Shown here: positions 336 through 64,000 of the stretch, in pieces
Position numbering within the stretch: the stretch's first letter is position 1
How the letters are laid out: each line of letters starts with the position of its first letter
Origin: Yuukianura sp. NJ FZ-2021
Lineage: Eukaryota
NCBI GenBank assembly: GCA_046563655.1
Contig: JAJCTO010000011.1
Location: forward strand, 620,001-684,000
Direction of reading: 5' to 3'
DNA length: 64,000 nucleotides
Translations under genes and position numbers: made by a program
Notes under the pieces: model-generated
What the model saw: only the letters and a program-made list of their open reading frames with translations
Told to the model about the DNA's origin: nothing
Database searches by the model: none

Positions 336-356
336 ATACCTGGTATTTAATTGGAG

Positions 357-496
357 CTGGAGGCGCATTTTGGCTTGGGGCGCATCTTGGATGGAGGAGC
401 ATATTTTTAAAGCGCATATTGATGGAGGCGCATTTTGGCTGGAGGCGCACTTTGGATGGAGGCGCATATTGGAGAGGCGCACTTTGGTTAGGCGCT
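357..496. repeat. Degenerate ~17-18-bp minisatellite (ggaggcgcattttggat-like), about 8 copies
   Basis: Recurring ggaggcgca(t/c)(t/a)ttgg motif visible directly. Confidence 0.8.
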
Positions 497-1059
497 GATG
501 GGTTGCTTGCTGTTGCTACTTGCTACGCTTTATTTTGTGCTTTTGAACATCTTAAGGTGAATGCTACTTTTTAACAATAGAAAAAGTTCTCCGAGTCGAG
601 CTATGCTCAGGTTTGAACAAATCAGCGATCTGAAGTTGGAAAGTGAATATAAATAAAACAAAAATTAATTTCTGGAGATTTTCTCCAGAAATTTCTGGAG
701 AGTGGATTCGATTCGATTGTACTTTGACTCCATTTCGTCAGTGGAGCTGGGATCTGTTGTGGTATACGTTGAGGCTGTGGAACAGTCGCTAAACTTCCGA
801 CTTAGGTCGAATGTTCCAGAGGTGACTGTGATTGTGCTGGAGCGAACTCTTCTATTGTCCATCGAAGATCTCTTTCTGTGACCACAAATGTGGAAGAGCA
901 TTCACAACTGGAAGCAGAAGAGCACATGCGCAAAGCGTCAACCGATTTCCAAACGACGGACAAAACTTGCTTCTCTGACTTCCTATCTCCAGCGCATCTT
1001 GTTCTGAAACAGGTGAAAATGCTAATAATGATTTTTTTTTAAATAAAAATTTACTATCA

Positions 1060-1217
1060 TCTACGTAAGGAGAGATGTCTGTCCGGGGCTGGCTAAAGGT
1101 CGGATTTGTCTGACTCCTCTGATTTCTTTGAGTGGGTGCACGCAGACTGAGACTGAGTTGCTATTTCTGTCCTATTAGTTCAAGCGCCGCCGGTAGGCGG
1201 CGCCACGGATTGCCTAG
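1060..1217 (+). mobile_element. Non-autonomous Helitron, 158 bp
   Basis: 5' TC(TACGTAA) after an A. GC-rich hairpin gcgccgcc-ggta-ggcggcgc (1184-1203) lies 10 nt before CTAG (1214-1217), followed by T. This is the canonical A|TC…hairpin…CTAG|T layout. The 3' end is more certain than the 5' end. Confidence 0.8.
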
Positions 1218-2115
1218 TTTGATATAATGAGATGGATTTACCGCGCTGGCGCTCTAGGAGCAACGATAGCTTTTTGAATTTCCCCTTTAGCTGCCTGCAT
1301 GTGTTTGGCTTGCAAGTGAAAATGATGAAGATCCAGAGACCTGGCAAGGCATTTATGATGTCAAACGGAATGAAGGTGTCTTATAGCGGTTTATTTGAAC
1401 TGTAAACTTCCACAATCCAGCTGATGATCTCGAAAATTCATAATACGCCCGTTACAATGAAAATCTTCATGAAGAGCACAAACCTAAAAAAATCAAATCA
1501 GAATTGGTATCGAACTAATTACAAGTGCAGAATGTTGCTTGATACTGCAATTCCTGGTAGTATTTTGGTTGAAATTTTTCAAGTGTAGCGCGCGCTAGTA
1601 GGTCTGTTGAGCCTACTTCTAGTCGCCTCTCTGTGCAACAACCCCGCAGTCCCTGTGACCGAAACTGAGATTTCCTCTACAGGGGAATCTGCAGTTCAGG
1701 TCAACTCTTCTCTTCAGGAAGATTTGACCTGAGGTCAACAATGCTAGGTTCTCCTGTTGAGCCAACATCAACTGAGAAATGAAATGGTCGTGACAACAAC
1801 AGTGAACTAATGGAATAGACTTTTATTTAGGTGTTCACTTGTTGAAGGTTGGGAAGAGACTCCCGTACAGAAAATATGAAAAGAATAATTTTTGTGTAAC
1901 CTGTGCTAGAACATAAACTCCTACTCCTCTACCTATCCCTACCTACTCGGTTTAGGCCGGAGTTCCGAATCCGTCCGTCGTCGGTCCCTCTCAGCTTCAT
2001 ATTGCGCCAGGGAAATACGCCTCCATCAGCGCCATCCTCATGCGCGGTCCTCCGACCTCGACAAGCGGACAAAATCTTCGTCTTCTTCTCGCCTCGTTTC
2101 CACTCGACACGTCTG

Positions 2116-2175
2116 GAATTCCTGGATGAGCATGCAGAATTCCTAGATGAACGTGCAGAATTCTCAGATGATCGT
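2116..2175. repeat. 21-bp tandem repeat, ~3 copies (gaattcctrgatgarcrtgca)
   Basis: gaattc starts at 2116, 2137 and 2158. Confidence 0.8.
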
Positions 2176-2799
2176 TTTTTCTTAATTTTCTCCCGTCTTT
2201 TCACGTTCATTTTATGAGTCAAATGCGTTCTTTTTTCTGGATGTTTTTTGAAGTAATGCTTGCGACTTTCTTTTCGTTCCAGAGTTCTTCTTGCGTCCGG
2301 TTCTTGGTTGATTTTTGGACAGTCTTGTCAGCTATAGTCAAGTAGAATGGAATTATCACTTTTCCAAGATGGCCCCCCTTCCCCGGGCGCCCACTAGGCG
2401 CACGGGTAATGAGAATTGGGTTAGCATGTATATGTTTATTGGGGGGAGCAGTCACCTATAATTAGGTGACTGACTCACGCTGAGCATACGCTTATGGTAT
2501 ATTTCAGACCTACCCCTTTAGAAACAGCGTTATTTTATGTCCTTTATGAGCAAATACACATTATGGTAATCTGAATGCTATCATCCTACGGAGGTCGTCC
2601 GTATCCCGATAAGCAAATCAGATTGAATGAGTATTTTTTGCGTAATGGACTGCTTCAAGGAGTAGTGACCGGCAACCACCACAAATCCGCGAAGCTCTTA
2701 CCCGCTGTCACAGCAGACCACAGACACCTCTGACTCAAGGTCAGCTCCTTCTGTGGTTTCAGCAGGCAGTGCTTGCAGATGCGGCACCCCCCAATATAC

Positions 2800-3024
2800 T
2801 CCTTTATATAGGGGTGTCCACACAACAGCCGCTGGAAAGACAGAAGTCCAGCACTTGCCTTCCTGCTTCGGAAAGGGAGGACCCACGGCCTCGACTTCTT
2901 TTTTCTCTCCCGCTGACTGGGTGCGAACACAGGCCGGCCAGTGGAAAAGCATTGAAGGCTTAACCACTGAGCCAACTCGCCCCTATTATTGGGTTAGCAT
3001 AAGCCAAGTGCCCTATATAAAGGA
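2800..3024. promoter_or_regulatory. Pair of outward-facing TATA-box-like 14-mers (CCCTATATAAAGGA)
   Basis: tcctttatataggg at 2800-2813 and its exact reverse complement at 3011-3024. Function not shown. Confidence 0.35.
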
Positions 3025-3889
3025 TCGTCACCCCTCCCCCTTTGGCCCTTCCTCCCCCCCTAATTGGCCAAGGCCACCCCCCATCTTCCTTCCGTCGGAT
3101 ACCCCCTCCTCAGTATTCTCCCCTCCCCTTGTCACTATGCCCCCTCCCCCCCTGACTGGCTCATCCTACACACAAGTATGAGATTAATAACTCAAACGTT
3201 TAACCGAGACTCAGCCTGCCCCCCAGAATGTCAAGGTCGCGCCAATCCTTTAACCCCAAGGTCACGGCACATGTAATAGGGAAATGAAGTTTCACCGGGA
3301 TCACGACATTGCCTTTATCAACACCTCCCCTTCGAGGTCACACGATTCCCTGCACCCCATTCTCAAGGTCACGTTTGGGAGAAAAGCTTTCACTACATGA
3401 CTTGAACTTGACCCATCTCAAGGTCCCGTGCGCAAATGAAAAACAGTAGCTTTATCAAATGACTTTCACTTACCCCGAGATCAAGAAAGCAATTTTGAGG
3501 GTGCAGTGTAAACTCAAATGCAACCATTGGGTATGCGCCCGTTATAGTACAACACTATACATGGTCGTAGCATATAAAAGTAAATGCAAATTCAAAATGT
3601 GGCACTTGTATTGTGGGAATTGGTGGCAGGTGCATTTTCCGCGTTCCCCTCGCTTCCGTCACGCGTCCCTTTCTCCACACACTGCTTTCTCTGACCAACA
3701 GACAATACCCCCACATTACCACATGATTACACATGTACACATTACACATACCACATGATTTTTTTTAAAAAAAAATCAATTTTTGAGAAACAATTCAATT
3801 TTTGAAAAAAAAAGAGAATTTTTTCTGCCACTTCCATTAGCTGTGGTTTTGATAACTGGGAAAGCCAAGAAGGGTGGGCGAGACAACTC

Positions 3890-4020
3890 AAATAGGTCAA
3901 AGGTCAAATATCCGAGTGACACTACGCCGGGGGGCGTGGCAAGCCTCAGTCTTGGGCCAGTCAGTCTTTAGCATTTCAATGGGGGGCGTGGCTAAAGGAA
4001 ATGGTGCAATTTGATTGGTC
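3890..4020. promoter_or_regulatory. Promoter-like motif cluster (tandem AGGTCA, two GGGGCGTGGC boxes, inverted CCAAT)
   Basis: aggtcaaaggtcaa ~3894-3908, ggggggcgtggc twice (~3929, ~3981), gattgg ~4013. Motif match only. Confidence 0.3.
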
Positions 4021-4177
4021 GACGCACATTGTACGCACGGCCATAAGCCAAAGTGTTAACGGTTTACATGTTGGCGGTTAGATTGACGCTGAGGTCACAC
4101 CTTAAGTTTTCGTGGTCTGCAATAAAGAATTGAGGCGATTATATTTTTTGTCAAGTGGATTTGTATTGATTTTTAGA

Positions 4178-4865
4178 GAGCTTACCTCACGACAGGGGGT
4201 CCTTGGATTTGGGGGAGATCGCGTATGCAAAGTAGCATCTTCCTTATTTTTCAAAATCACATTACAGTAATATACTTTGTGCCAAATCGGAATGGCATCT
4301 TGTCAAGTGCTGAGGCCCCTCTGGGGTGAAACAATCCAACTCGAAATGACTTATACAAATGCGGAGCCTTTACATTTCATTTTGGCGACATGTTCTGCCA
4401 AATCGTGAAAGCTTGACGCTGCACTTTCCCTCAACTTATGAAACCCATAGATGACAAGCGTAGAGAGTTTAGTGGTGCATACTTTAATGTTTCGTAAAAA
4501 CTGGTATCATTGCTTAGCCAGCCAGGTTCGTACGCTGCATAAAAAATTTTGCCACTAACCGTCAAGATTTACAATCTACAGCACATTAGCGTTTAACTTC
4601 TCTACCAATAAATTTACACAAATTCATTCTCTCAAATTTAAGTCGTTTTCGGCAAAATGGTGCTCGGCATTGCTCTGGGTGCCGTTTACCAACCCAAGAT
4701 AAACTCCGAGGCAGAGCGGTTCATCCAGACTTTTAAGTACACTCTAACCAGATTTAATGGCGATCTATCCACGCCAATCAAACTTGCGTTCCTGTAGTAC
4801 TTTTCAGGAGGATTTCAGAAAAGTAACCCATTTTCACCCGGCATCGCTCCGAGTGGAGGTTTCTG
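4178..4865 (+). pseudogene. Decayed Ty3/Gypsy integrase (pre-IN linker, H2C2 zinc finger, rve core), with frameshifts and stops
   Basis: Manual translation gives, in order: ELTSRQGVLGFGGDRVC (4178-4228), QIGMASCQVLR (4283), KCGAF (4357), KPIDDKRREFSGAY (4441), STNKFTQIHSLKFKSF (4601), QNGARH, GAVYQPKINSEAERFIQTFKYTLTR (4678-4752), then FRKVTHF / GIAP. Order and spacing match the Gypsy consensus ELSVEDGCLLWGxRV…HPG…CxxC…RPWERIHIDFAGP…SDNGPQFTSEEFKxF…NGIRH…APYHPxxNGxAERFVQTFK…YRxTPHSTTGxxP. Confidence 0.7.
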
Positions 4866-47789: not shown

Positions 47790-47889
47790 NNNNNNNNNNN
47801 NNNNNNNNNNNNNNNNNNNNNNNNNNNNNNNNNNNNNNNNNNNNNNNNNNNNNNNNNNNNNNNNNNNNNNNNNNNNNNNNNNNNNNNNN
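47790..47889. other. Assembly gap (100 N)
   Basis: Run of 100 N, typical of an unsized scaffolding gap. Confidence 0.99.
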
Positions 47890-49156
47890 GTTCGGCAAAA
47901 ATTCTTTCTAAGAAACTGAGTCCACTACACTTCCACAAACTTTCAGCACCTCCTTCCTTCACTTTACGGGACAGTGAGACCCTCGGCTGAACATGTGGAC
48001 AATGAGCACAACAAAAACACAAATAAGCGGAGGCCAATAAATTGACTCCCAGTAACTGCCACAGATTCTGAGTTCCACCTTCCTTCACTTTACGGGACAG
48101 TGAGACCCACGACTCAGAACTTGTGCACAGAAAACCGCCGCACTTCAACCAAACTATAGCCAATAATTTTACATCATCACATTTGCACGAACTTTTGACT
48201 TTTTCGATTTTTAAATCTTGAGGGAATGAGACCCTGAACAACACAATGCATGTAGCATAAGATGCGCTGCGAGCCAGCAATGCCAGGACAACGATCTTCA
48301 CTTCAATTTTAAATTCACTTCCAATTTCTTCTTTCTTATCACCTAGTACCGCAGCACTGTAACTTTCACTTTTGACAACTTGAGTAACGCCGCACTTCAG
48401 CACTGCCGGGCTAACGTTCTCCATCATTTTAACTCTCACAATTAACACTTTTTGTAGATACTCACTGTTTGAATCTTGAGTAACGCCGCACTTCAGCATC
48501 GCCGGGCGTACGTTCTCCTTACGTTTAACACTCAGAACTAACACTTTTTGTAAAAGCCCACATTTTGGAGCTTGAGCGACGCTGCGAGCCTCGCCGATTG
48601 TGGCTGGGACAACGATCTCAGTCTTGGCAACTTTCATACCGAAGACTTTCTTTAGAAGCTCTCTTTTTGGAGCTTGAGTAACGCTGCGAGCCTTGTCACT
48701 TGGGACCGGGACAACGTACTCTGGAGCGACGTCGGAAGATTGAGGCCTCGTTCCCGAACATCTCTCCTTAATGAGGACTACTTTCAACCCCTCATTCTGC
48801 GTTAGTATGCCACCCCCGTGGTCATACTCTTCTTTTTTGTTAACACTTCTCACTACACACTTCACTTCTCTTCTCACTTCCTGGATCCACACTATATACA
48901 AATGATGCCAGTTGCTAAAACGCAACTCATTAGGCACTAACACTAACTTAAACTGTGCAAAAATATTTACAATAATGAGTGACACACAGCACTCAATGAC
49001 TACTTCAACCAAAACTTTTGACACAAAACTGGAAACACTCTTAACTTTTCCATAATCGTCTAAAAACTGAAGAATTTCGTCCGCACTTAACTGTACACTA
49101 TGGAGAATGATGGACGAACTGTCATTCCCCTTTTTTAGTTTAAATTTTCTTGACAT
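47890..49156 (-). CDS. ORF2-like frame of the LTR element, unknown function, with internal 32-34-aa repeats; runs into the gap
   Basis: Open for ~420 codons in this copy but split into three ORFs in copy 2. No RT, RNase H, protease or integrase motifs seen. Confidence 0.35.
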
Positions 49157-49733
49157 TTTTCATCTTCAGCACAATCACTTTCCTCTCCATATTCGCCATA
49201 CCCCTCTAAAACACTTTCACAATAACTTCCATACAAACCTCCACTTTCAAAAATTTCCGTCGAGGGGAAGCCAACGGTGTTGACTCCCATAGGTTTTGGA
49301 TAATTTCCATGATTTTGGTGGCTCTCCTGTGCCACCATAATGTAACTTGTCACTTTTCTTGATTTTAAAACTTTTGACTGCACTTGGTCACATTTCACAC
49401 ATTTTTGTTCACTTGGTCACATTTGTCACATTTCTGGTTCACTTCAACTTCTGCGTCACTCAACTTTTTCACATTACTGATACACACTACTGCCAACTTC
49501 TTACTAGTGGCAGACTTTGGAACTTTCGACTTGGTTGGTGCTGAGACGAGTTGCACGCTTTGCAGGGCCGAACTCAGCGCCTCTGTCGAATGTGCACTTT
49601 CACTTTCACTAGAAGCCACCGCAGCGACTCCCTCGGACACTTTTCTCACTATTTTCTCTTCCACGCCTCGCAAGGCATTGGCTACCGCAGCAGCCACTAT
49701 TTTCTCTACATCTTCCTGTGTGTAAGTTGCCAT
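49135..49733 (-). pseudogene. Frameshifted copy of ORF1 of the LTR element
   Basis: ORFs 49395-49733 and 49135-49398 together match the single ORF 53358-53957. Confidence 0.6.
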
Positions 49734-50452
49734 GGCCTAATCACCCGCAGGAGACGGCACTGTATCACTAAGCACGCACACTGAGGCGAATTACACAATG
49801 AATGAAATGTTCTGCCGCAGCAAAAACTAGATCCGTCTTCGGTACCAAAATGGTACTAATTAATCACTTCTTTATCTCGGAATTACACAAATTACACTGA
49901 TTCTTGGTCATTCGTGACCTTTGACATGAGCGGAAACCACTGCCAGTGACTCCCATGTGCTAAAACGGAGGCCGCTGTTAGCGACTCCCACATGTTAAAT
50001 GCATGAAAAACACTTTTTAGGCACAAATTTTAACAAATTTCACACACTTTACCTTACTTGACCTTTGGTGACCTCCAGGTCACTGGATCTGCACTCGAAC
50101 GGTCGCCATGTGTAACGCCCTACGACGCTAAACAACTGAAAAACACAACTGGAGCAAACACTGCCGCTCCGCACCAGACTACTCTCTGAGTCCGCAGACT
50201 CTCAGACCCAAATGACCCCAAAACAATCAGCACTGCTCACAACTACATCGGCGAATAAATGTATGAAATATATTTATTCGTCGAGAATAAAATATATACA
50301 ACAAAACCTCCGTCTCACGAAGAGACCCAAAAACCGACTAACCACTAAAACTAAATCTCTCCTCTCTCTCTCTACCACACCGTATCTCGAATCTCCCGCG
50401 GCTCATCTCCGCAACCTAACCTAACTAATCCCCGGAGTAGCAGACGCCAACA

Positions 50453-51434
50453 CAACGAGTACAAGCATGATATTCAGCTGTCACGACTAGAGATAAAATT
50501 TTTTACATGTTGGCGTCATTGGGTCGTTCTGCAAAATTTTCTTTTAGTGCAACCGAGAGGTGCCAGGAATCGACATGTGGCGAAAAGTGCGACAACTAGT
50601 GTGTTCCTAAGTAAAACACAGTAGCAGTTAGAGGTCAAATGTAACCAACAACGAGTACAAGCATGATATTCAGCTGTCATGACTAGAGATAAAAATTTTT
50701 ACATGTTGGCGTCATGGGGTCGTTCTGCAAAATTTTCTTTTAGTGCAACCGAGAGGTGCCAGGAATCGACATGTGGCGAAAAGTGCGACAACTAGTGTGT
50801 TCCTAAGTAAAATACAGTAGCAGTTAGAGGTCAAATGTAACCAACAACGAGTACAAGCATGATATTCAGCTGTCACGACTAGAGATAAAATTTTTTACAT
50901 GTTGGCGTCATGGGGTCGTTCTGCAAAATTTTCTTTTAGTGCAATCGAGAGGTGCCATGAATCGACATGTGGCGAAAAGTGCGACAACTAGTGTGTTCCT
51001 AAGTAAAACACAGTAGCAGTTAGAGGTCAAATGTAACCAACAACGGGTACAAGCATGATATTCAGCTGTCATGACTAGAGATAAAATTTTTACATGTTGG
51101 CGTCATGGGGTCGTTCTGCAAAATTTTCTTTTAGTGCAATCGAGAGGTGCCATGAATCGACATGTGGCGAAAAGTGCGACAACTAGTGTGTTCCTAAGTA
51201 AAACACAGTAGCAGTTAGAGGTCAAATGTAACCAACAACGAGTACAAGCATGATATTCAGCTGTCATGACTAGAGATAAAATTTTTACATGTTGGCGTCA
51301 TGGGGTCGTTCTGCAAAATTTTCTTTTAGTGCAATCGAGAGGTGCCAGGAATCGACATGTGGCGAAAGGTGCGACAACTAGTGTGTTCCTAAGTAAAACA
51401 CAGTAGCAGTTAGAGGTCAAATGTAACCAACAAC
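50453..51434. repeat. Satellite 2 (~196-bp monomer), 5 copies between the two LTR elements
   Basis: 982 bp, five tandem copies of caacgagtacaagcatgatattcagctgtc…gtcaaatgtaaccaa. Confidence 0.97.
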
Positions 51435-51803
51435 TGTAACGCCTCGACGTCACGGTCAGCCATGTGTAACGCCCTACGACGCTAAACAACTGAAAAACAC
51501 AACTGGAGCAAACACTGCCGCTCCGCACCAGACTACCTCTCTGAGCCCACAGGCTCTCAGACCCAAATGACCCCAAAACAATCACCACTGCTCACTACAT
51601 CATCGACGAATAAATGTAAATGTATATTTATTCGTCGCAATAAATATAATACAACAAAACCTCCGTCTCACGCAGAGACCAAAAAACCGACTAACCACTA
51701 AAACTAAATCTCTCCTCTCTCTCTACCACACCGTATCTCGAATCTCCCGCGGCTCATCTCCGCAACCTAACCTAACTAATCCCCGGAGTAGCAGACGCCA
51801 ACA
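51435..51803 (-). repeat. 3' LTR (369 bp)
   Basis: Direct repeat of 54334-54706 with several substitutions and indels. Confidence 0.93.
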
Positions 51804-53379
51804 CATTCCTCTCCAGATGATGGGTGTCGAGCCTGACGACCCTGGCCGACATCCATCAGCGACAACTCCAAAGGCGACTGCGACTCCCGAACCTCTGCAT
51901 CTCCGTGGCCATCATCCTCATCCATGGACATCAGCGGAGTCTTCATCATGGTAATCGTCAACCGCAGCATCCGATTCCTCCCGAGTGCTCCATCCAACAC
52001 GTCAGGCACTTCCACATTGTCACTCACTAAATCACTTTTCACTTGAAGGGAAGTTGTCAAGACAACTCCCTTTGTACCCACATCATCATATTCACTTTTT
52101 AAATTCATGTTCGGCAAAATTCTTTCTAAGAAACTGAGTCCACTACACTTCCACAAACTTTCAGCACCTCCTTCCTTCACTTTACGGGACAGTGAGACCC
52201 TCGGCTGAACATGTGGACAATGAGCACAACAAAAACACAAATAAGCGGAGGCCAATAAATTGACTCCCAGTAACTGCCACAGATTCTGAGTTCCACCTTC
52301 CTTCACTTTACGGGACAGTGAGACCCACGACTCAGAACTTGTGCACAGAAAACCACCGCACTTCAACCAAACTATAGCCAATAATTTCACATCATCACAC
52401 TTGCACGAACTTTTCACTTTTTCAATTTTTAAATCTTGAGGGAATGAGACCCTGAACAACACAATGCATGTAGCATAAGATGCGCTGCGAACCAGCAATG
52501 CCAGGACAACGATCTTCATTTCAATTCTAAATTCACATCCAATTTCTTCTTTCTTATTCCATAGTACCGCAGCACTGTAACTTTCACTTTTGACAACTTG
52601 AGTAACGCCGCACTTCAGCACTGCCGGGCAAACGTTCTCCATACTTTTAACTTACACAATTAACACTTTTTGTAGATACTCACTGTTTGAATCTTGAGTA
52701 ACGCCGCACTTCAGCATCGCCGGGCGTACGTTCTCCTTACGTTTAACACTCAGAACTAACACTTTTTGTAAAAGCCCACATTTTGGAGCTTGAGCGACGC
52801 TGCGAGCCTCGCCGATTGTGGCTGGGACAACGTTCTCTGTCTTGGTAACTTTCATACCGAAGACTTTCCGTAGAAGCTCTCTTTTTGGAGCTTGAGTAAC
52901 GCTGCGAGCCTTGTCACTTGGGACCGGGACAACGTACTCTGGAGCGACGTCGGAAGATTGAGGCCTCGTTCCCGAACATCTCTCCTTAATGAGGACTACT
53001 TTCAACCCCTCATTCTGCTGTAGTATGCCACCCCCGTGGTCATACTCTTCTTTTTGTTAACACTTCTCACTACACACTTCACTTCTCTTCTCACTTCCTG
53101 GATCCACACTATATACAAATGATGCCAGTTGCTAAAACGCAACTCATAAGGCACTAACACTAACACTAACTGAAACTGTGCAAAAATATTTACAATAATG
53201 AGTGACACACAGCACTCAATGACTACTTCAACCAAAACTTTTGACACAAAACTGGAAACACTCTTAACTTTTCCATAATCGTCTAAAAACTGAAGAATTT
53301 CGTCCGCACTTAACTGTACACTATGGAGAATGATGGACGAACTGTCATTCCCCTCTCTTAGTTTAAATTTTCTTGACAT
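51776..53379 (-). pseudogene. Disrupted ORF2-like region of copy 2 (53002-53379, 52652-53005, 51776-52642)
   Basis: Three fragments collinear with the continuous frame 47890-49156. The last fragment ends inside the 3' LTR. Confidence 0.4.
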
Positions 53380-53957
53380 TTTTCATCTTCAGCACAATCA
53401 CTTTCCTCTCCATATTCGCCATACCCCTCTAAAACACTTTCGACATAACTTCCATCAAAACCTCCACTTTCAAAAATTTTCGTCGAGCGGAAGCCAACGG
53501 TGTTGACTCCCATTAGTTTTGAATAATTTCCATGATTTTGGTGGCTCTCCTGTGCCACCATAATGTAACTTGTCACTTTTCTTGATTTTAAAACTTTTGA
53601 CTGCACTTGGTCACATTTCACACATTTCTTGTTCACTTGTTCACATTTGTCACATTTCTGGTTCACTTCAACTTCTGCGTCACTCAACTTTTTCACATTA
53701 CTGATACACACTACTGCCAACTTCTTACTAGTGGCAGACTTTGGAACTTTCGACTTGGTTGGTGCTGAAACGAGTTGCAGGTTTTGCAGGGCCGAATTCA
53801 GCGCCTCTGTCGAATGTGCACTTTCACTTTCACTAGAAGCCACCGCAGCGACTCCCTCGGACACTTTTCTCACTATTTTCTCTTCCACGCCTCGCAAGGC
53901 ATTGGCTACCGCAGCAGCCACTATTTTCTCTACATCTTCCTGTGTGTAAGTTGCCAT
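53358..53957 (-). CDS. ORF1 of the LTR element, 199 aa, in the gag position; helical N-terminus MATYTQEDVEKIVAAAVANALRG
   Basis: First ORF after the PBS/leader, with ATG in gccATGg Kozak context at 53957. No CCHC knuckle seen; Gag identity inferred from position only. Confidence 0.5.
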   Translation of the reverse strand: MATYTQEDVEKIVAAAVANALRGVEEKIVRKVSEGVAAVASSESESAHSTEALNSALQNLQLVSAPTKSKVPKSATSKKLAVVCISNVKKLSDAEVEVNQKCDKCEQVNKKCVKCDQVQSKVLKSRKVTSYIMVAQESHQNHGNYSKLMGVNTVGFRSTKIFESGGFDGSYVESVLEGYGEYGEESDCAEDEKCQENLN

Positions 53958-54321
53958 GGCCCAATCACCCGCAGGAGACGGCACTGTATCACTAAACACG
54001 CACACTGAGGCGAATTACACAATGAATGAAATGTTCTGCCGCAGCAAAAACTAGATCCGTCTTCGGTACCAAAATGGTACTAATTAATCACTTCTTTATC
54101 TCGGAATTACACAAATTACACTGATTCTTGGTCATTCGTGACCTTTGACATGAGCGGAAACCACTGCCAGTGACTCCCATGTGCTAAAACGGAGGCCGCT
54201 GTTAGCGACTCCCATATGTTGAATGCATGAACATCACTTTTAGGCACAAATTTTAACAAATTTCACACACTTTATCTTACTTGACCTTTGGTGACCTCCA
54301 GGTCACTGGATCTGTACGCAA

Positions 54322-54331
54322 ACGGTCGCCA
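54322..54331 (-). promoter_or_regulatory. Primer-binding site TGGCGACCGT, probably tRNA-Arg
   Basis: Begins with TGG 2 nt inside the 5' LTR. Matches my recollection of the tRNA-Arg(UCG) 3' end …CACGGUCGCCA. Confidence 0.75.
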
Positions 54332-54333
54332 TG

Positions 54334-54706
54334 TGTAACGCCTCGACGTCACGGTCAGCCATGTGTAACGCCCTACGACGCTAAACAACTGAAAAACACA
54401 ACTGGAGCAAACACTGCCGCTCCGCACCAGACTATCTCTCTGAGTCCGCAGACTCTCAGACCCAAATGACCCCAAAACAATCACCACTGCTCACAACGGC
54501 ATCGACGAATAAATGTATGAAATATATTTATTCGTCGAGAATAAAATATATACAACAAAACCTCCGTCTCACGAAGAGACCCAAAAACCGACTAACCACT
54601 AAAACTAAATCTCTCCTCTCTCTCTCTACCACACCGTATCTCGAATCTCCCGCGGCTCATCTCCGCAACCTAACCTAACTAATCCCCGGAGTAGCAGACG
54701 CCAACA
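54334..54706 (-). repeat. 5' LTR (373 bp)
   Basis: TGTTGGCGTC…GGCGTTACA on the minus strand, adjacent to the PBS. Confidence 0.93.
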
Positions 54707-57700
54707 CAACGAGTACAAGCATGATATTCAGCTGTCACGACTAGAGATAAAATTTTTACATGTTGGCGTCATTGGGTCGTTCTGCAAAATTTTCTTTTAG
54801 TGCAACCGAGAGGTGCCAGGAATCGACATGTGGCGAAAAGTGCGACAACTAGTGTGTTCCTAAGTAAAACACAGTAGCAGTTAGAGGTCAAATGTAACCA
54901 ACAACGAGTACAAGCATGATATTCAGCTGTCATGACTAGAGATAAAAATTTTTACATGTTGGCGTCATGGGGTCGTTCTGCAAAATTTTCTTTTAGTGCA
55001 ACCGAGAGGTGCCAGGAATCGACATGTGGCGAAAAGTGCGACAACTAGTGTGTTCCTAAGTAAAATACAGTAGCAGTTAGAGGTCAAATGTAACCAACAA
55101 CGAGTACAAGCATGATATTCAGCTGTCACGACTAGAGATAAAATTTTTTACATGTTGGCGTCATGGGGTCGTTCTGCAAAATTTTCTTTTAGTGCAATCG
55201 AGAGGTGCCATGAATCGACATGTGGCGAAAAGTGCGACAACTAGTGTGTTCCTAAGTAAAACACAGTAGCAGTTAGAGGTCAAATGTAACCAACAACGAG
55301 TACAAGCATGATATTCAGCTGTCATGACTAGAGATAAAATTTTTTACATGTTGGCGTCATGGGGTCGTTCTGCAAAATTTTCTTTTAGTGCAATCGAGAG
55401 GTGCCATGAATCGACATGTGGCGAAAAGTGCGACAACTAGTGTGTTCCTAAGTAAAACACAGTAGCAGTTAGAGGTCAAATGTAACCAACAACGAGTACA
55501 AGCATGATATTCAGCTGTCATGACTAGAGATAAAATTTTTTACATGTTGGCGTCATGGGGTCGTTCTGCAAAATTTTCTTTTAGTGCAATCGAGAGGTGC
55601 CAGGAATCGACATGTGGCGAAAAGTGCGACAACTAGTGTGTTCCTAAGTAAAACACAGTAGCAGTTAGAGGTCAAATGTAACCAACAACGGGTACAAGCA
55701 TGATATTCAGCTGTCATGACTAGAGATAAAATTTTTTACATGTTGGCGTCATTGGGTCGTTCTGCAAAATTTTCTTTTAGTGCAATCCGAGAGGTGCCAG
55801 GAATCGACATGTGGCGAACAGTGCGACAACTAGTGTGTTCCTAAGTAAAACACAGTAGCAGTAAGAGGTCAAATGTAACCAACAACAAGTACAAGCATGA
55901 TATTCAGCTGTCATGACTAGAGATAAAAATTTTTACATTTTGGCGTCATGGGGTCGTTCTGCAAAATTTTCTTTTAGTGCAATCGAGAGGTGCCAGGAAT
56001 CGACATGTGGCGAAAAGTGCGACAACTAGTGTGTTCCTAAGTAAAATACAGTAGCAGTTAGAGGTCAAATGTAACCAACAACGAGTACAAGCATGATATT
56101 CAGCTGTCACGACTAGAGATAAAATTTTTTACATGTTGGCGTCATTAGGTCGTTCTGCAAAATTTTCTTTTAGTGCAATCGAGAGTGCCAGGAATCGACA
56201 TGTGGCGAAAAGTGAGACAACTAGTGTGTTCCTAAGTAAAACACAGTAGCAGTTAGAGGTCAAATGTAACCAACAACGAGTACAAGCATGATATTCAGCT
56301 GTCATGATTAGAGATAAAAATTTTTACATGTTGGCGTCATGGGGTCGTTCTGCAAAATTTTCTTTTAGTGCAATCGAGAGGTGCCAGGAATCGACATGTA
56401 GCGAAAAGGTGCGACAACTAGTGTGTTCCTAAGTAAAACACAGTAGCAGTTAGAGGTCAAATGTAACCAACAACGGGTACAAGCATGATATTCAGCTGTC
56501 ATGACTAGAGATAAAATTTTTACATGTTGGCGTCATGGGGTCGTTCTGCAAAATTTTCTTTTAGTGCAATCGAGAGGTGCCAGGAATCGACATGTGGCGA
56601 AAAGTGCGACAACTAGTGTGTTCCTAAGTAAAACACAGTAGCAGTTAGAGGTCAAATGTAACCAACAACGGGTACAAGCATGATATTCAGCTGTCATGAC
56701 TAGAGATAAAATTTTTACATGTTGGCGTCACTGGGTCGTTCTGCAAAATTTTCTTTTAGTGCAATCGAGAGGTGCCAGGAATCGACATGTGGCGAAAAGT
56801 GCGACAACTAGTGTGTTCCTAAGTAAAACACAGTAGCAGTTAGAGGTCAAATGTAACCAACAACGAGTACAAGCATGATATTCAGCTGTCATGACTAGAG
56901 ATAAAAATTTTACATTTTGGCGTCATGGGGTCGTTCTGCAAAATTTTCTTTTAGTGCAATCGAGAGGTGCCAGGAATCGACATGTGGCGAAAAGTGCGAC
57001 AACTAGTGTGTTCCTAAGTAAAATACAGTAGCAGTTAGAGGTCAAATGTAACCAACAACGAGTACAAGCATGATATTCAGCTGTCATGACTAGAGATAAA
57101 ATTTTTACATGTTGGCGTCATTGGGTCGTTCTGCAAAATTTTCTTTTAGTGCAACCGAGAGGTGCCAGGAATCGACATGTGGCGAAAAGTGCGACAACTA
57201 GTGTGTTCCTAAGTAAAACACAGTAGCAGTTAGAGGTCAAATGTAACCAACAACGAGTACAAGCATGATATTCAGCTGTCATGACTAGAGATAAAAATTT
57301 TTACATGTTGGCGTCATGGGGTCGTTCTGCAAAATTTTCTTTTAGTGCAATCGAGAGGTGCCAGGAATCGACATGTGGCGAAAAGTGCGACAACTAGTGT
57401 GTTCCTAAGTAAAATACAGTAGCAGTTAGAGGTCAAATGTAACCAACAACGAGTACAAGCATGATATTCAGCTGTCATGACTAGAGATAAAATTTTTTAC
57501 ATGTTGGCGTCATGGGGTCGTTCTGCAAAATTTTCTTTTAGTGCAATCGAGAGGTGCCAGGAATCGACATGTGGCGAAAAGTGCGACAACTAGTGTGTTC
57601 CTAAGTAAAACACAGTAGCAGTTAGAGGTCAAATGTAACCAACAACGAGTACAAGCATGATATTCAGCTGTCATGACTAGAGATAGAAATTTTTACATGT

Positions 57701-60700
57701 TGGCGTCACGGGGTCTTTCTGCAAAATTTTCTTTTAGTGCAATCGAGAGGTGCCATGAATCGACATGTGGCGAAAAGTGCGACAACTAGTGTGTTCCTAA
57801 GTAAAACACAGTAGCAGTTAGAGGTCAAATGTAACCAACAACGAGTACAAGCATGATATTCAGCTGTCATGACTAGAGATAAAAATTTTTACATGTTGGC
57901 GTCATGGGTCGTTCTGCAAAATTTTCTTTTAGTGCAATCGAGAGGTGCCAGGAATCGACATGTGGCGAAAAGGTGCGACAACTAGTGTGTTCCTTAGTAA
58001 AACACAGTAGCAGTTAGAGGTCAAATGTAACCAACAACGAGTACAAGCATGATATTCGGCTGTCATGACTAGAGATAAAAATTTTTACATGTTGGCGTCA
58101 TGGGGTCGTTCTGCAAAATTTTCTTTTAGTGCAATCGAGAGGTGCCAGGAATCGACATGTGGCGAAAAGTGCGACAACTAGTGTGTTCCTAAGTAAAACA
58201 CAGTAGCAGTTAGAGGTCAAATGTAACCAACAACGAGTACAAGCATGATATTCAGCTGTCATGACTAGAGATAAAAAATTTTTACATGTTGGCGTCATGG
58301 GGTCGTTCTGCAAAATTTTCTTTTAGTGCAATCGAGAGGTGCCAGGAATCGACATGTGGCGAAAGGTGCGACAACTAGTGTGTTCCTAAGTAAAACACAG
58401 TAGCAGTTAGAGGTCAAATGTAACCAACAACGGGTACAAGCATGATATTCAGTTGTCATGACTAGAGATAAAAATTTTTACATGTTGGCGTCATGGGGTC
58501 GATCTGCAAAATTTTCTTTTAGTGCAATCGAGAGGTGCCATGAATCGACATGTGGCGAAAAGTGCGACAACTAGTGTGTTCCTAAGTAAAACACAGTAGC
58601 AGTTAGAGGTCAAATGTAACCAACAACGGGTACAAGCATGACATTCAGCTGTCATGACTAGAGATAGAATTTTTTACATGTTGGCGTCATGGGGTCGTTC
58701 TGCAAAATTTTCTTTTAGTGCAATCGAGAGGTGCCATGAATCGACATGTGGCGAAAAGTGCGACAACTAGTGTGTTCCTAAGTAAAACACAGTAGCAGTT
58801 AGAGGTCAAATGTAACCAACAACGAGTACAAGCATGATATTCAGCTGTCATGACTAGAGATAAAAATTTTTACATGTTGGCGTCATGGGTCGTTCTGCAA
58901 AATTTTCTTTTAGTGCAATCGAGAGGTGCCAGGAATCGACATGTGGCGAAAAGGTGCGACAACTAGTGTGTTCCTTAGTAAAACACAGTAGCAGTTAGAG
59001 GTCAAATGTAACCAACAACGAGTACAAGCATGATATTCAGCTGTCATGACTAGAGATAAAAATTTTTACATGTTGGCGTCATGGGGTCGTTCTGCAAAAT
59101 TTTCTTTTAGTGCAATCGAGAGGTGCCAGGAATCGACATGTGGCGAAAAGTGCGACAACTAGTGTGTTCCTAAGTAAAACACAGTAGCAGTTAGAGGTCA
59201 AATGTAACCAACAACGGGTACAAGCATGATATTCAGCTGTCATGACTAGAGATAAAAAATTTTTACATGTTGGCGTCATGGGGTCGTTCTGCAAAATTTT
59301 CTTTTAGTGCAATCGAGAGGTGCCAGGAATCGACATGTGGCGAAAAGTGCGACAACTAGTGTGTTCCTAAGTAAAACACAGTAGCAGTTAGAGGTCAAAT
59401 GTAACCAACAACGAGTACAAGCATGATATTCAGTTGTCATGACTAGAGATAAAATTTTTACATGTTGGCGTCATTAGGTCGTTCTGCAAAATTTTCTTTT
59501 AGTGCAATCGAGAGGTGCCAGGAATCGACATGTGGCGAAAAGTGCGACAACTAGTGTGTTCCTAAGTAAAACACAGTAGCAGTTAGAGGTCAAATGTAAC
59601 CAACAACGAGTACAAGCATGATATTCAGCTGTCATGACTAGAGATAAAAATTTTTACATGTTGGCGTCATGGGGTCGTTCTGCAAAATTTTCTTTTAGTG
59701 CAATCGAGAGGTGCCAGGAATCGACATGTGGCGAAAAGTGCGACAACTAGTGTGTTCCTAAGTAAAACACAGTAGCAGTTAGAGGTCAAATGTAACCAAC
59801 AACGAGTACAAGCATGATATTCAGCTGTCATGACTAGAGATAAAATTTTTTACATGTTGGCGTCATGGGGTCGTTCTGCAAAATTTTCTTTTAGTGCAAT
59901 CGAGAGGTGCCAGGAATCGACATGTGGCGAAAGGTGCGACAACTAGTGTGTTCTTAAGTAAAACACAGTAGCAGTTAGAGGTCAAATGTAACCAACAACG
60001 GGTACAAGCATGATATTCAGCTGTCATGACTAGAGATAAAATTTTTTACATGTTGGCGTCATTGGGTCGTTCTGCAAAATTTTCTTTTAGTGCAACCGAG
60101 AGGTGCCAGGAATCGACATGTGGCGAAAAGTGCGACAACTAGTGTGTTCCTAAGTAAAACACAGTAGCAGTTAGAGGTCAAATGTAACCAACAACGAGTA
60201 CAAGCATGATATTCAGCTGTCATGACTAGAGATAAAAAATTTTACATTTTGGCGTCATGGGGTCGTTCTGCAAAATTTTCTTTTAGTGCAATCGAGAGGT
60301 GCCAGGAATCGACATGTGGCGAAAAGTGCGACAACTAGTGTGTTCCTAAGTAAAATACAGTAGCAGTTAGAGGTCAAATGTAACCAACAACGAGTACAAG
60401 CATGATATTCAGCTGTCACGACTAGAGATAAAATTTTTTACATGTTGGCGTCATTGGGTCGTTCTGCAAAATTTTCTTTTAGTGCAATCGAGAGGTGCCA
60501 GGAATCGACATGTGGCGAAAAGTGAGACAACTAGTGTGTTCCTAAGTAAAACACAGTAGCAGTTAGAGGTCAAATGTAACCAACAACGAGTACAAGCATG
60601 ATATTCAGCTGTCATGACTAGAGATAAAAATTTTTACATGTTGGCGTCATGGGGTCGTTCTGCAAAATTTTCTTTTAGTGCAATCGAGAGGTGCCAGGAA

Positions 60701-63700
60701 TCGACATGTGGCGAAAAGTGCGACAACTAGTGTGTTCCTAAGTAAAATACAGTAGCAGTTAGAGGTCAAATGTAACCAACAACGAGTACAAGCATGATAT
60801 TCAGCTGTCACGACTAGAGATAAAATTTTTTACATGTTGGCGTCATGGGGTCGTTCTGCAAAATTTTCTTTTAGTGCAATCGAGAGGTGCCAGGAATCGA
60901 CATGTGGCGAAAAGTGCGACAACTAGTGTGTTCCTAAGTAAAACACAGTAGCAGTTAGAGGTCAAATGTAACCAACAACGGGTACAAGCATGACATTCAG
61001 CTGTCATGACTAGAGATAGAATTTTTTACATGTTGGCGTCATGGGGTCGTTCTGCAAAATTTTCTTTTAGTGCAATCGAGAGGTGCCAGGAATCGACATG
61101 TGGCGAAAAGTGCGACAACTAGTGTGTTCCTAAGTAAAACACAGTAGCAGTTAGAGGTCAAATGTAACCAACAACGAGTACAAGCATGATATTCAGCTGT
61201 CATGACTAGAGATAAAAATTTTTACATGTTGGCGTCATGGGTCGTTCTGCAAAATTTTCTTTTAGTGCAATCGAGAGGTGCCAGGAATCGACATGTGGCG
61301 AAAAGGTGCGACAACTAGTGTGTTCCTTAGTAAAACACAGTAGCAGTTAGAGGTCAAATGTAACCAACAACGAGTACAAGCATGATATTCAGCTGTCATG
61401 ACTAGAGATAAAAATTTTTACATGTTGGCGTCATGGGGTCGTTCTGCAAAATTTTCTTTTAGTGCAATCGAGAGGTGCCAGGAATCGACATGTGGCGAAA
61501 AGTGCGACAACTAGTGTGTTCTTAAGTAAAACACAGTAGCAGTTAGAGGTCAAATGTAACCAACAACGAGTACAAGCATGATATTCAGCTGTCATGACTA
61601 GAGATAAAAAATTTTACATGTTGGCGTCATGGGGTCGTTCTGCAAAATTTTCTTTTAGTGCAATCGAGAGGTGCCAGGAATCGACATGTGGCGAAAGGTG
61701 CGACAACTAGTGTGTTCCTAAGTAAAACACAGTAGCAGTTAGAGGTCAAATGTAACCAACAACGGGTACAAGCATGATATTCAGCTGTCATGACTAGAGA
61801 TAAAAATTTTTACATGTTGGCGTCATGGGGTCGATCTGCAAAATTTTCTTTTAGTGCAATCGAGAGGTGCCATGAATCGACATGTGGCGAAAAGTGCGAC
61901 AACTAGTGTGTTCCTAAGTAAAACACAGTAGCAGTTAGAGGTCAAATGTAACCAACAACGAGTACAAGCATGATATTCAGCTGTCATGACTAGAGATAGA
62001 ATTTTTACATGTTGGCGTCATGGGGTCGTTCTGCAAAATTTTCTTTTAGTGCAATCGAGAGGTGCCAGGAATCGACATGTGGCGAAAAGTGCGACAACTA
62101 GTGTGTTCCTAAGTAAAACACAGTAGCAGTTAGAGGTCAAATGTAACCAACAACGAGTACAAGCATGATATTCAGCTGTCATGACTAGAGATAAAAATTT
62201 TTACATGTTGGCGTCATGGGGTCGTTCTGCAAAATTTTCTTTTAGTGCAATCGAGAGGTGCCAGGAATCGACATGTGGCGAAAGGTGCGACAACTAGTGT
62301 GTTCCTTAGTAAAACACAGTAGCAGTTAGAGGTCAAATGTAACCAACAACGAGTACAAGCATGATATTCGGCTGTCATGACTAGAGATAAAAATTTTTAC
62401 ATGTTGGCGTCATGGGGTCGTTCTGCAAAATTTTCTTTTAGTGCAATCGAGAGGTGCCAGGAATCGACATGTGGCGAAAAGTGCGACAACTAGTGTGTTC
62501 CTAAGTAAAACACAGTAGCAGTTAGAGGTCAAATGTAACCAACAACGAGTACAAGCATGATATTCAGCTGTCATGACTAGAGATAAAAAATTTTACATGT
62601 TGGCGTCATGGGGTCGTTCTGCAAAATTTTCTTTTAGTGCAATCGAGAGGTGCCAGGAATGGACATGTGGCGAAAAGGTGCGACAACTAGTGTGTTCCTA
62701 AGTAAAACACAGTAGCAGTTAGAGGTCAAATGTAACCAACAACGGGTACAAGCATGATATTCAGCTGTCATGACTAGAGATAAAAATTTTTACATGTTGG
62801 CGTCATGGGGTCGATTCTGCAAAATTTTCTTTTAGTGCAATCGAGAGGTGCCAGGAATCGACATGTGGCGAAAAGTGCGACAACTAGTGTGTTCCTAAGT
62901 AAAATACAGTAGCAGTTAGAGGTCAAATGTAACCAACAACGAGTACAAGCATGATATTCAGCTGTCATGACTAGAGATAAAAAATTTTACATGTTGGCGT
63001 CATGGGGTCGTTCTGCAAAATTTTCTTTTAGTGCAATCGAGAGGTGCCAGGAATCGACATGTGGCGAAAAGTGCGACAACTAGTGTGTTCCCAAGTAAAA
63101 CACAGTAGCAGTTAGAGGTCAAATGTAACCAACAACGAGTACAAGCATGATATTCAGCTGTCATGACTAGAGATAAAAATTTTTACATGTTGGCGTCATG
63201 GGGTCGTTCTGCAAAATTTTCTTTTAGTGCAATCGAGAGGTGCCAGGAATCGACATGTGGCGAAAAGTGCGACAACTAGTGTGTTCCTAAGTAAAACACA
63301 GTAGCAGTTAGAGGTCAAATGTAACCAACAACGAGTACAAGCATGATATTCAGCTGTCATGATTAGAGATAAAAATTTTTACATGTTGGCGTCATGGGGT
63401 CGTTCTGCAAAATTTTCTTTTAGTGCAATCGAGAGGTGCCAGGAATCGACATGTGGCGAAAGGTGCGACAACTAGTGTGTTCCTAAGTAAAACACAGTAG
63501 CAGTTAGAGGTCAAATGTAACCAACAACGAGTACAAGCATGATATTCAGCTGTCATGACTAGAGATAAAAATTTTTACATGTTGGCGTCATGGGGTCGTT
63601 CTGCAAAATTTTCTTTTAGTGCAATCGAGAGGTGCCAGGAATCGACATGTGGCGAAAGGTGCGACAACTAGTGTGTTCCTAAGTAAAACACAGTAGCAGT

Positions 63701-64000
63701 TAGAGGTCAAATGTAACCAACAACGAGTACAAGCATGATATTCGGCTGTCATGACTAGAGATAAAAATTTTTACATGCTGGCGTCACGGGGTCGTTCTGC
63801 AAAATTTTCTTTTAGTGCAATCGAGAGGTGCCAGGAATCGACATGTGGCGAAAAGTGCGACAACTAGTGTGTTCTTAAGTAAAACACAGTAGCAGTTAGA
63901 GGTCAAATGTAACCAACAACGAGTACAAGCATGATATTCAGCTGTCATGACTAGAGATAAAAATTTTTACATGTTGGCGTCATGGGGTCGTTCTGCAAAA
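54707..64000. repeat. Satellite 2, ~196-bp monomer, ~47 copies, continuing past the window end
   Basis: gagtac anchor at 54711, 54906, 55102 and onward (195-197 bp). No evident similarity to satellite 1. Confidence 0.98.

Follow-up and report, generated by a model that had tools for sequence, protein, structure and literature searches.

Introduction

Why would nearly every repeat unit of a satellite carry the joined ends of a retrotransposon that sits in the same array? Satellites that derive from transposable elements are well known, and so is the pile-up of retrotransposons in satellites, which is usually put down to chromatin tethering. Both phenomena would be tied at the sequence level if a satellite unit displayed, joined to each other, the recognition ends of its own invading lineage. 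We examined this question in a window of 64,000 nucleotides, the whole stretch of DNA analyzed here, in which two copies of an LTR element lie among monomers of a tandem repeat that we refer to as satellite 2 (Table 1).

Table 1. Positions in the window of the LTR element, of satellite 2 and of the motifs that they share
Feature	Position	Strand	Evidence and remarks
Isolated TTTACATGTTGGCG in non-satellite unique DNA	4063..4076	+	14 bases common with the monomer, 13 with the joint of LTR end and LTR start
LTR element, copy 1	47890..50452	-	cut by assembly gap 47790-47889; internal part 97.6% identical to copy 2 over 2,218 columns
5' LTR of copy 1	50111-50452	-	without the 30-bp duplication found in both copy 2 LTRs
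Satellite 2 block, 5 monomers of 196 bp, separating copies 1 and 2	50453..51434	+	TRF period 196, 5.0 copies, 97% matches
First instance of the 15-mer TTACA/TGTTGGCGTC	50503..50517	+	exact sequence match
11-mer TGTAACCAACA at the insertion site	51422..51432	+	first 6 and last 6 LTR bases on the + strand, one C overlapping; 52 occurrences in satellite 2
Target-site duplication CAAC	51431..51434 (left), 54707-54710 (right)	.	read directly
LTR element, copy 2, 3,272 bp	51435..54706	-	complete, non-autonomous, ORFs broken by frameshifts; LTRs, TG..CA tips, target-site duplication, PBS-like and PPT-like sites
3' LTR of copy 2, 369 bp	51435..51803	-	alignment, identity over 368 columns
Purine tract GGAGAGGAA (PPT-like)	51806..51814	-	2 nt (TG) ahead of the 3' LTR; read directly
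PBS-like site TGGCGACCGTTTGCG	54317..54331	-	2 nt (CA) past the 5' LTR; read directly
5' LTR of copy 2, 373 bp	54334..54706	-	alignment; 98.8% identical to the copy 1 LTR, 95.4% to the copy 2 3' LTR
Satellite 2 main array, ~47 monomers, reaching the window end	54707..64000	+	TRF period 196, 47.4 copies, 97% matches

Results

In the sense of the element, all three LTR copies in the window open with TGTTGGCGTC and close with GGCGTTACA (TGTTGG...GTTACA), and a direct repeat of GGCGT lies four bases in from either tip. These tips were not borrowed from the satellite, because two of their boundaries face the element's own interior: 51803/51804 adjoins the purine tract, and 54333/54334 adjoins CA followed by TGGCGACCGT. 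Directly past this CA spacer after the 5' LTR, TGGCGACCGT may fit an arginine tRNA; the window contains no tRNA genes. A Pfam scan of four element ORFs on the minus strand gave no family above the cut-off, and the gag and pol domains (protease, RT, RNase H, integrase) of an autonomous element of the Ty3/gypsy, BEL/Pao or Ty1/copia kind were not found. No homologue of an element ORF at E ≤ 0.001 emerged among 8000 scored candidates, a search of 1.84 billion representatives returned one match (E = 5.7e-4), and the best score in an Atlas search was 0.79. The inserted element is a non-autonomous, LARD-like LTR retrotransposon.

The monomers of the main satellite 2 array are on average 98.7% identical to their consensus. 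Examined as a coding fossil, the monomer has a longest open frame of only 60 codons, and the single-strand DNA fold is unremarkable (z-score 0.11). No RNA families, including ribozymes, were found in 47890-56000, where one snoRNA match stayed below threshold.

With the LTR end set against the LTR start in element sense (a slash marks the joint), TTACA/TGTTGGCGTC is exact in 48 of the 52 whole satellite 2 monomers, which bears out the claim of a first-pass annotation that nearly all monomers carry a 15-bp exact match to an LTR-LTR junction. The U5 end abuts the U3 start directly over 15/15 bases with no target duplication in between, as in a 2-LTR circle junction, and the joint lies in a central ACA/TGT palindrome. 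Searching the window with up to two mismatches allowed, we obtained 54 matches where shuffles predict 0.13; satellite 2 accounts for 53 of them (49 exact, 4 with one mismatch), and the remaining one, at 4064-4078, has two mismatches. Conservation of the 15-mer does not clearly exceed that of the remaining monomer sequence (48/52 exact against ~43 expected at 98.7% identity). Additional copies could be inspected in read data, which in all four runs are contigs, so that their depth is not a copy number. A diverged monomer variant (run X3) keeps 13/16 motif bases; in the reads of a second organism (run X4, single contigs) the 15-mer is intact and the 11-mer TGTAACCAACA differs by one base.

The first-pass annotation had likened this match to the junction of a 2-LTR circle. 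The abutting of the two ends agrees with this comparison, but an unprocessed circle does not. Two-nucleotide spacers separate the LTRs of the element from its interior (CA ahead of the PBS-like site, TG behind the purine tract), and the unprocessed junction should therefore read end-CATG-start. This 19-base form with its four extra bases has no match in the window at up to three mismatches. What the motif reproduces are the ends in their processed, integrated form, set directly against each other.

Since the match had been noticed post hoc, the annotation had left chance open and proposed a shuffle test. When the monomer was dinucleotide-shuffled 20,000 times, no shuffle gave a junction-spanning match of 15 (the maximum of 14 was seen one time), and among pseudo-junctions built from real ...CA and TG... 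sites in the window's other DNA, 6 of 2,166,784 reached this length (2.8e-6). In control DNA, namely 43.6 kb of satellite 1 and 4.7 kb from the interiors of the two element copies, the longest junction match was 7. Comparable matches, which the annotation had named as a point against the link should they be common, were rare in shuffles, pseudo-junctions and control DNA. We consider it highly improbable that the resemblance is fortuitous. It is true that the match was picked by eye out of a very large scan, that no homology extends past the 15 bases, and that the overall k-mer sharing of monomer and LTR is not significant (160/2000 shuffles as good at k = 8 and 227/2000 at k = 10). Against these points stand a junction-specific probability of ~3e-6 to <5e-5, the failure of the control DNA to exceed 7 bases, and two more low-probability coincidences on the same tips, the 11-mer at the insertion site and an isolated copy of the joint (see below). 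An origin of the 15-mer by chance is very unlikely, and the data support a link by more than chance that connects the monomer with the tips by which integrase recognizes this LTR lineage.

The isolated copy lies in unique DNA (Table 1). Of 1000 shuffles of positions 1-4700, 6 match the monomer over 14 bases as this copy does. The flanks of this copy are unrelated to LTR or monomer, with local flank alignments at chance level. We also considered 4069-4266 (198 bp, TGTTGG...ATTACA) as a solo LTR and found this candidate weak, with 17/300 shuffles as good against the monomer and 5/300 against the LTR. Nearby, 4374-4403 resembles monomer positions 50-85 (3/200 shuffles locally, 29/200 over 1 kb).

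A sensitive alignment of satellite and LTR was another check that the annotation had proposed, and here the result counts against its suggestion: the similarity stops at 15 bases. Local alignment of the monomer to LTR+LTR of this one family returned the 15-mer alone, and the score of a global monomer-LTR alignment was equaled or beaten by 86/300 shuffles. Over most of its length the monomer is not alignable to a TE segment, as judged by comparison with this one LTR family, and we saw no LTR family whose body resembles the monomer. The reverse possibility, that the LTRs descended from satellite monomers, was rejected because LTR and monomer fail to align. A scan of metagenomes with a 19-base LTR end gave one match in a 2-kb contig without other resemblance, which we took as chance.

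The monomer contains a further stretch, ACA-TG-TGGCGA, similar to the LTR-end/PBS boundary of the element. Tandem arrays of TRIMs are known, and the monomer could be the very short LTR plus internal domain of such a miniature LTR element, repeated as LTR-internal-LTR-internal. TGTTGGCGTC would then be the LTR start, ...CGACA-TG-TGGCGA (monomer ~118-130) the LTR end with the primer-binding site, and the preceding TTACA a coincidence. Read directly, ACA-NN-TGGCGA in the monomer does look like TTACA-CA-TGGCGACCGT in the element and makes a candidate PBS, and satellites derived from LTR and UTR have been described (PMC3648361). We nevertheless find an origin of this kind improbable: 5/15 matched bases would be left to a coincidence of roughly 1 in 1000; the putative LTR start and the purine-rich stretch are 8 nt apart instead of adjoining; and the two monomer stretches separated by the ACATGT(T)GGCG motifs are dissimilar and do not form sub-repeats (399/1000 shuffles score equally well).

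We then turned to the insertion itself. Read contigs contain the empty site, a joint 51429->54706 with 5 letters fitting either side. Uninterrupted monomers read straight through. The CAAC duplication overlaps the final two bases of TGTAACCAACA, the 11-mer in which the annotation had recognized both plus-strand LTR termini at the insertion site. This observation holds: 7/20,000 shuffles place the two end-hexamers no farther than 15 nt from where the element inserted. AGTAGCAG, which had been noted in the monomer and subterminally in the LTR, is indeed present 52 times in the satellite 2 blocks, but by itself it lacks significance (2.3 shared 8-mers expected, 6 observed; 160/2000 shuffles reach 6). 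Capture of cDNA by microhomology at the 11-mer was rejected, since the observed joints retain a full 11-mer copy and the 4-bp duplication.

The two element copies, which occupy the same monomer phase, do not represent two events. The element inserted once with the 4-bp CAAC duplication and was then copied along with five monomers. Aligned in register, the 5-monomer block between the copies differs from the first five monomers after copy 2 in 9 columns, and from the other 42 blocks in 16-32. Among the loose ends listed for the read contigs, the outer LTR borders show only empty-site ends and no alternative flanks.

Could the target 11-mer be what is left, after collapse, of an earlier insertion by this lineage into the same CAAC, so that the site would be a repeated target? 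A deletion between the GGCGT copies would yield TGTTGGCGTTACA, and the monomer, read directly, has TGTTGGCGTTACA minus CG; the 11-mer is also flanked by CAAA and (CA)AC, near the present duplication CAAC. Such a history seems very unlikely to us. It requires the loss of two more bases, the 11-mer lacks a clean target duplication around it, and the case is a pure reading of patterns.

The same site bears on a functional alternative, in which the end-like motifs of the monomer would be att mimics bound by the integrase of the lineage or by an integrase-derived host protein. The satellite might then be a landing pad that diverts insertions to DNA where they do no harm, or a decoy that titrates integrase away. 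The sole insertion seen has a 4-bp duplication overlapping the end of a permuted end-like 11-mer; just 20 of 196 monomer positions put both hexamers within 15 nt; the second organism keeps the 15-mer intact and the 11-mer to within one base; and HIV-1 integrase is described as acting on its cognate LTR-LTR junction (PMC1905944). We regard both variants of such mimicry as unlikely. There is one independent insertion, and it adjoins the 11-mer motif ~50 bp away from the 15-mer instead of lying inside it. Moreover, motif conservation does not clearly exceed that of the monomer, a diverged monomer variant is without the motif, and the integrase gene of a partner element is absent from the window. 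In its strongest form, each 196-bp unit would show a joined-ends att mimic and a permuted copy beside a preferred cut site, and intasomes of the lineage, or a host protein domesticated from an integrase, would be drawn to megabases of harmless satellite. We give this version little credence. If true, it would parallel, on the side of LTR retrotransposons, the binding of a satellite box by a transposase-derived protein, and through an integrase cue in the satellite, host DNA would channel or blunt retrotransposition in a new way.

Discussion

As the best explanation of these observations we tentatively propose, at somewhat short of even chances, that the satellite 2 motif is a relic of abutted LTR ends, left by a lineage with the same integrase-recognition termini and amplified with the satellite. 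The first-pass annotation had suggested that the satellite may descend from an LTR-junction product; the non-chance link to the LTR tips speaks for this idea, and the end of all homology after 15 bases does not. We infer that the motif descends from a genuine LTR-LTR joint and was amplified passively, as follows.

Each 196-bp unit would hold one relic, a U5 end against a U3 start, both trimmed as in integrated copies, with neither target duplication nor spacer. The ends would come from a retroelement lineage that shares its termini with the 3.3-kb non-autonomous element now in the array. The founder may have been a short LTR repeated head to tail, or a fragment that contained an LTR-LTR joint; the relic would already have been part of this founding unit and would have been amplified passively with it. 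LTR bodies in the lineage probably turn over quickly, and only the tips would still be recognizable for this reason. The element itself arrived a single time, through an ordinary integrase reaction that left the CAAC 4-bp duplication, and later the element and five monomers were copied as a 4.25-kb higher-order unit.

The second end-like motif (7/20,000) and the isolated joint (6/1000) speak for abutted ends of the lineage as sequences that do exist and recur. In read contigs from three runs the element is matched only from the last 14 LTR bases inward, with different sequence upstream (loose ends at 51790), which fits relatives with common tips and different LTR bodies. Routes from transposable elements to satellites have been published, with rare LTR-LTR tandem joints among them (PMC5932611, PMC12628747). 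Other observations speak against a relic. The U5 side contributes only 5 bases, no similarity goes past the 15-mer, the 19-mer circle junction is absent, and the diverged read variant keeps 13 of the 16 bases. The isolated copy at 4064, without LTR-like flanks, looks more like a portable motif than like decayed LTRs, and ACA-TG-TGGCGA in the monomer allows the different TE-derived reading discussed above. If the motif is a relic, it would be a molecular fossil of an LTR-LTR joint and would document a rarely seen route from retroelement to satellite.

Comparison with Known Systems

The 2-LTR circle junction of retroviruses is described as a substrate of integrase (Delelis et al. 2007, PMC1905944; Delelis et al. 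2005, PMC1180852). In the case of HIV-1, integrase is reported to recognize and cleave the cognate LTR-LTR junction, which resembles the integration-site consensus (PMC1905944). The satellite 2 motif has in common with these junctions the U5 end on the U3 start and an ACA/TGT palindrome of the type recognized by an integrase tetramer. Unlike the junctions in these accounts, which keep two extra bases per unprocessed end, the motif comes without the CA and TG spacers; furthermore, it is part of a chromosome, and the window contains tens of tandem copies of it.

Errantivirus-group gypsy elements are reported to insert sequence-specifically, with TATA, CGCG and ATAT as targets and 4-bp duplications (Nefedova and Kim 2017, PMC5408687). 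The targets described there are short and palindromic and the tips are of the AGT...ACT type, whereas the element here has TGT...ACA tips and a non-palindromic CAAC target known from one event. The 4-bp target duplication is the same, and possibly also the sequence-defined target (PMC5408687).

For tandem transposable elements of Drosophila, McGurk and Barbash (2018, PMC5932611) describe tandems with a shared LTR, double insertions that keep the target duplication in the joint, rolling circles, and rare direct LTR-LTR joints. Double insertion predicts a 4-bp target duplication between the ends where we find zero bases, and no full LTR body is recognizable in the satellite 2 monomer. What the two systems would share are mechanisms by which abutted LTR ends arise in chromosomes, followed by expansion of the array (PMC5932611).

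Maize CRM1TR and CRM4TR are satellites made from parts of LTR retrotransposons (Sharma et al. 2013, PMC3648361), and such routes are reviewed in PMC12628747. In these sources, hundreds of monomer bases align to the parent LTR and UTR, compared with 15 here, and satellite 2 joins an LTR end to an LTR start, an arrangement absent from a single integrated element (PMC3648361). Like satellites of the CRM1TR/CRM4TR type, satellite 2 lies in a retrotransposon-rich region, has sequence in common with an LTR boundary region and hosts related insertions (PMC3648361, PMC12628747).

Results and Discussion

The 196-bp unit of satellite 2, the array in the right third of the window, carries a match to the tips of the LTR element inserted in it, joined end to start. 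Read on the strand of the element, the LTR opens with TGTTGGCGTC and closes with GGCGTTACA. The joint TTACA|TGTTGGCGTC (15-mer, first instance 50503-50517) has 53 matches in satellite 2 at up to two mismatches, 49 of them exact. The first-pass annotation had placed it in nearly all monomers, and indeed 48 of the 52 whole monomers, which average 98.7% identity to their own consensus, contain it exactly. A second motif, the 11-mer TGTAACCAACA (51422-51432 in one instance), occurs 52 times and combines the first and last six LTR bases as read on the plus strand; the CAAC target-site duplication overlaps its last two bases. Within the monomer the tips stand in both orders: one strand reads end|start, the opposite strand start|end. 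The actual insertion sits at the start|end motif. Each LTR tip also has GGCGT, in direct orientation and four bases in from the end, so that the remains of an older, collapsed insertion might look much like the 11-mer. Every monomer also has a 12-bp A/T palindrome, TAAAAATTTTTA, just ahead of the 15-mer (50495-50506 in one) and an 8-bp palindrome, GTCATGAC, another 14 bp upstream; despite these, the monomer folded as a single strand is unremarkable (z 0.11).

Features of satellite 2 and of the two element copies that interrupt it
Feature	Position	Strand	Remarks
Assembly gap	47790-47889		100 N, exactly between satellite 1 (the different array further left) and truncated copy 1
Element copy 1	47890-50452	minus	cut by the assembly gap
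Satellite 2, left block	50453-51434		5 units of 196 bp, 97% matches
Element copy 2	51435-54706	minus	complete, 3,272 bp
LTRs of copy 2	51435-51803, 54334-54706	minus	369 and 373 bp, TG...CA tips
Target-site duplication of copy 2			CAAC, 4 bp; 5 bp counting the last LTR A
PBS-like site of copy 2			TGGCGACCGT, 2 bases (CA) past 5' LTR
Purine tract of copy 2			GGAGAGGAA, 2 bases (TG) ahead of 3' LTR
Satellite 2, main block	54707-64000		about 47 units of 196 bp, 97% matches

The tips were confirmed at the borders facing the element's own interior and are therefore not satellite sequence. The minus-strand ORFs of the element contain no Pfam family above cut-off; none of 8000 scored candidates is a homologue, 1.84 billion representatives give one weak match (E = 5.7e-4), and the best atlas score is 0.79. 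With neither family nor clear homologue, the element classifies as a non-autonomous, LARD-like LTR retrotransposon. Its ORF as a whole is an orphan without recognisable gag or pol, and includes three tandem 96-102-bp units (48366-48721, 52584-52939) whose translation repeats a segment of about 32 residues.

Chance is disfavoured as the origin of the 15-mer match. When the monomer was dinucleotide-shuffled 20,000 times, no junction-spanning exact match of 15 arose (best 14, once). As a null from real DNA, every ...CA site in unique DNA, the element interiors and one satellite 1 stretch was joined to every TG... site there, and the resulting 1472 x 1472 pseudo-junctions were compared at the monomer's 10 CATG contexts; a span of 15 was reached by 6 of 2,166,784 (2.8e-6). 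In the controls, 43.6 kb of satellite 1 and both element interiors, the true joint matches at most 7 bases. The 11-mer is unusual as well: 7 of 20,000 shuffles place both end-hexamers no more than 15 nt from the insertion point, and in the real monomer only 20 of the 196 positions would do so. The earlier caveat about chance is thus unlikely to hold for the 15-mer. Overall, the k-mers that monomer and LTR have in common are not significant, either for 8-mers (6 against 2.3 expected; equalled in 160 of 2000 shuffles) or for 10-mers (1 against 0.16; 227 of 2000). The motif AGTAGCAG, also noted earlier and present in the monomers (n = 52), therefore carries no weight alone.

The similarity ends sharply. 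Local alignment of the monomer to LTR+LTR yields only the 15-mer on the plus strand, and on the other a weak gapped match through GTTACAT...CTGCTACT...TTAGG; global monomer-LTR alignment is at chance (86 of 300 shuffles score equally). These alignments give no support for deriving the whole monomer from this LTR family: the proposed link to the LTR tips is real, but similarity goes no further than 15 bases. The motif occurs a third time, as TTTACATGTTGGCG, in non-satellite DNA at 4063-4076, about 100 bp ahead of satellite 1. This copy shares 14 bases with the monomer, a length that 6 of 1000 shuffles of 1-4700 attain, and it is the best junction-spanning match in unique DNA (13 bases). Its flanks resemble neither LTR nor monomer (363, 304, 307 and 273 of 500 shuffles score equally), so that the joint turns up in three unrelated contexts, each time as a module of 13-15 bases with sharp limits. 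Nearby, 4374-4403 is a weaker look-alike of monomer positions 50-85, and the 198-bp stretch 4069-4266 happens to run TGTTGG...ATTACA.

We tentatively favor, at somewhat less than even chances, the reading of the motif as a relic: LTR ends that abutted one another, from a lineage sharing the element's integrase-recognition tips. These ends would have been in the founder unit of satellite 2, whose amplification would have carried them along. A serious alternative, if an unlikely one, is a TRIM-like structure in which TGTTGGCGTC would be an LTR start and CGACA-TG-TGGCGA an LTR end plus PBS; this makes five matched bases a coincidence. Within the element itself, the LTR start (TGT-TGGCG-TC; 51794-51803) resembles the PBS-like site with its spacer (CA-TGGCG-AC; 54322-54333, element strand), so that an LTR end is followed by similar-looking sequence whether the next piece is another LTR or the PBS.

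The element has two-base spacers, one between LTR end and PBS-like site and one between purine tract and LTR start, which qualify the idea of a 2-LTR circle. Given that retroviral integrases trim two nucleotides off each end (PMC1905944), the tips would be extended by CA and TG before integration, and end-CATG-start is the expected junction of an unprocessed circle. This 19-mer has no match at up to three mismatches. The satellite motif equals trimmed, integrated-form ends abutted with nothing between; the 2-LTR circle junction suggested earlier fits in that end abuts start, but the CATG of an unprocessed circle is absent. A circle built from processed ends could give the joint, as could the loss of four bases at the CACATGTG repeat or an insertion using a resident LTR's last four bases as target.

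What looks like two insertions at one phase proved to be a single event. The satellite phase after copy 1 equals that after copy 2. Identity between the LTR of copy 1 and the 5' LTR of copy 2 is 98.8%, against only 95.4% between the two LTRs of copy 2, and the interiors agree at 97.6% (2,218 columns). Compared with the block of five monomers after copy 1, the first five monomers behind copy 2 differ in 9 alignment columns and each of the other 42 five-monomer blocks in 16-32. Element and five monomers (about 4.25 kb) were therefore duplicated after insertion. Both copy 2 LTRs contain a 30-bp duplication of LTR tip and a PBS-like piece (TGGCTGACCGTGACG...; 51435-51464, 54334-54363) that the copy 1 LTR (50111-50452) lacks. 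It appears to have arisen at the LTR/PBS border through reverse transcription or slippage, and because a 14-base direct repeat bounds it, loss by slippage would be easy.

Contigs from four read runs (X1-X4; two organisms by code, X4 being the second) were compared. The empty site is present as the joint 51429->54706 in 5 contigs of X1 and 3 of X2, with 5 ambiguous letters that match the 5-bp count of the target-site duplication. With 875 contigs in X1, across all identity classes, the element family is diverse and multi-copy; summed word depth, which is not a copy number, is one to two orders higher for satellite 2 than for the element. Some contigs of X2, X3 and X4 align to the window from 51790 inward, covering no more of the LTR than its last 14 bases, and differ upstream, consistent with relatives that have the same tips and a different LTR body. 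One X4 contig keeps the 15-mer, one has GGTAACCA in place of the window's TGTAACCA, and a diverged monomer variant in X3 reads ...TTGACAAGTTCGCGTC (13 of 16 bases). No alternative outer LTR flanks occur among the loose ends listed, which has no bearing on enrichment.

A functional role is improbable in our estimation: by analogy, an integrase, or a protein derived from one, might recognize the mimic of joined ends, and the satellite might attract or soak up integration. In HIV-1, the cognate LTR-LTR junction is cut by the integrase and resembles the integration-site consensus (PMC1905944); against this, there is a single insertion only, about 50 bp from the 15-mer.

In the literature searched (LTR-LTR junctions in satellites, LTR-derived satellites, integrase junction cleavage, insertion phase, Collembola satellites and TRIM arrays) we found no description of a satellite monomer with the joined LTR ends of the element inserted in it, and a 2025 review (PMC12628747) nowhere mentions 'integrase'. 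TE-related satellites are a kind already known. Unlike the double-insertion tandem of McGurk and Barbash (PMC5932611), the satellite motif has neither spacer bases nor a target duplication in its joint, and is thus a different structure.
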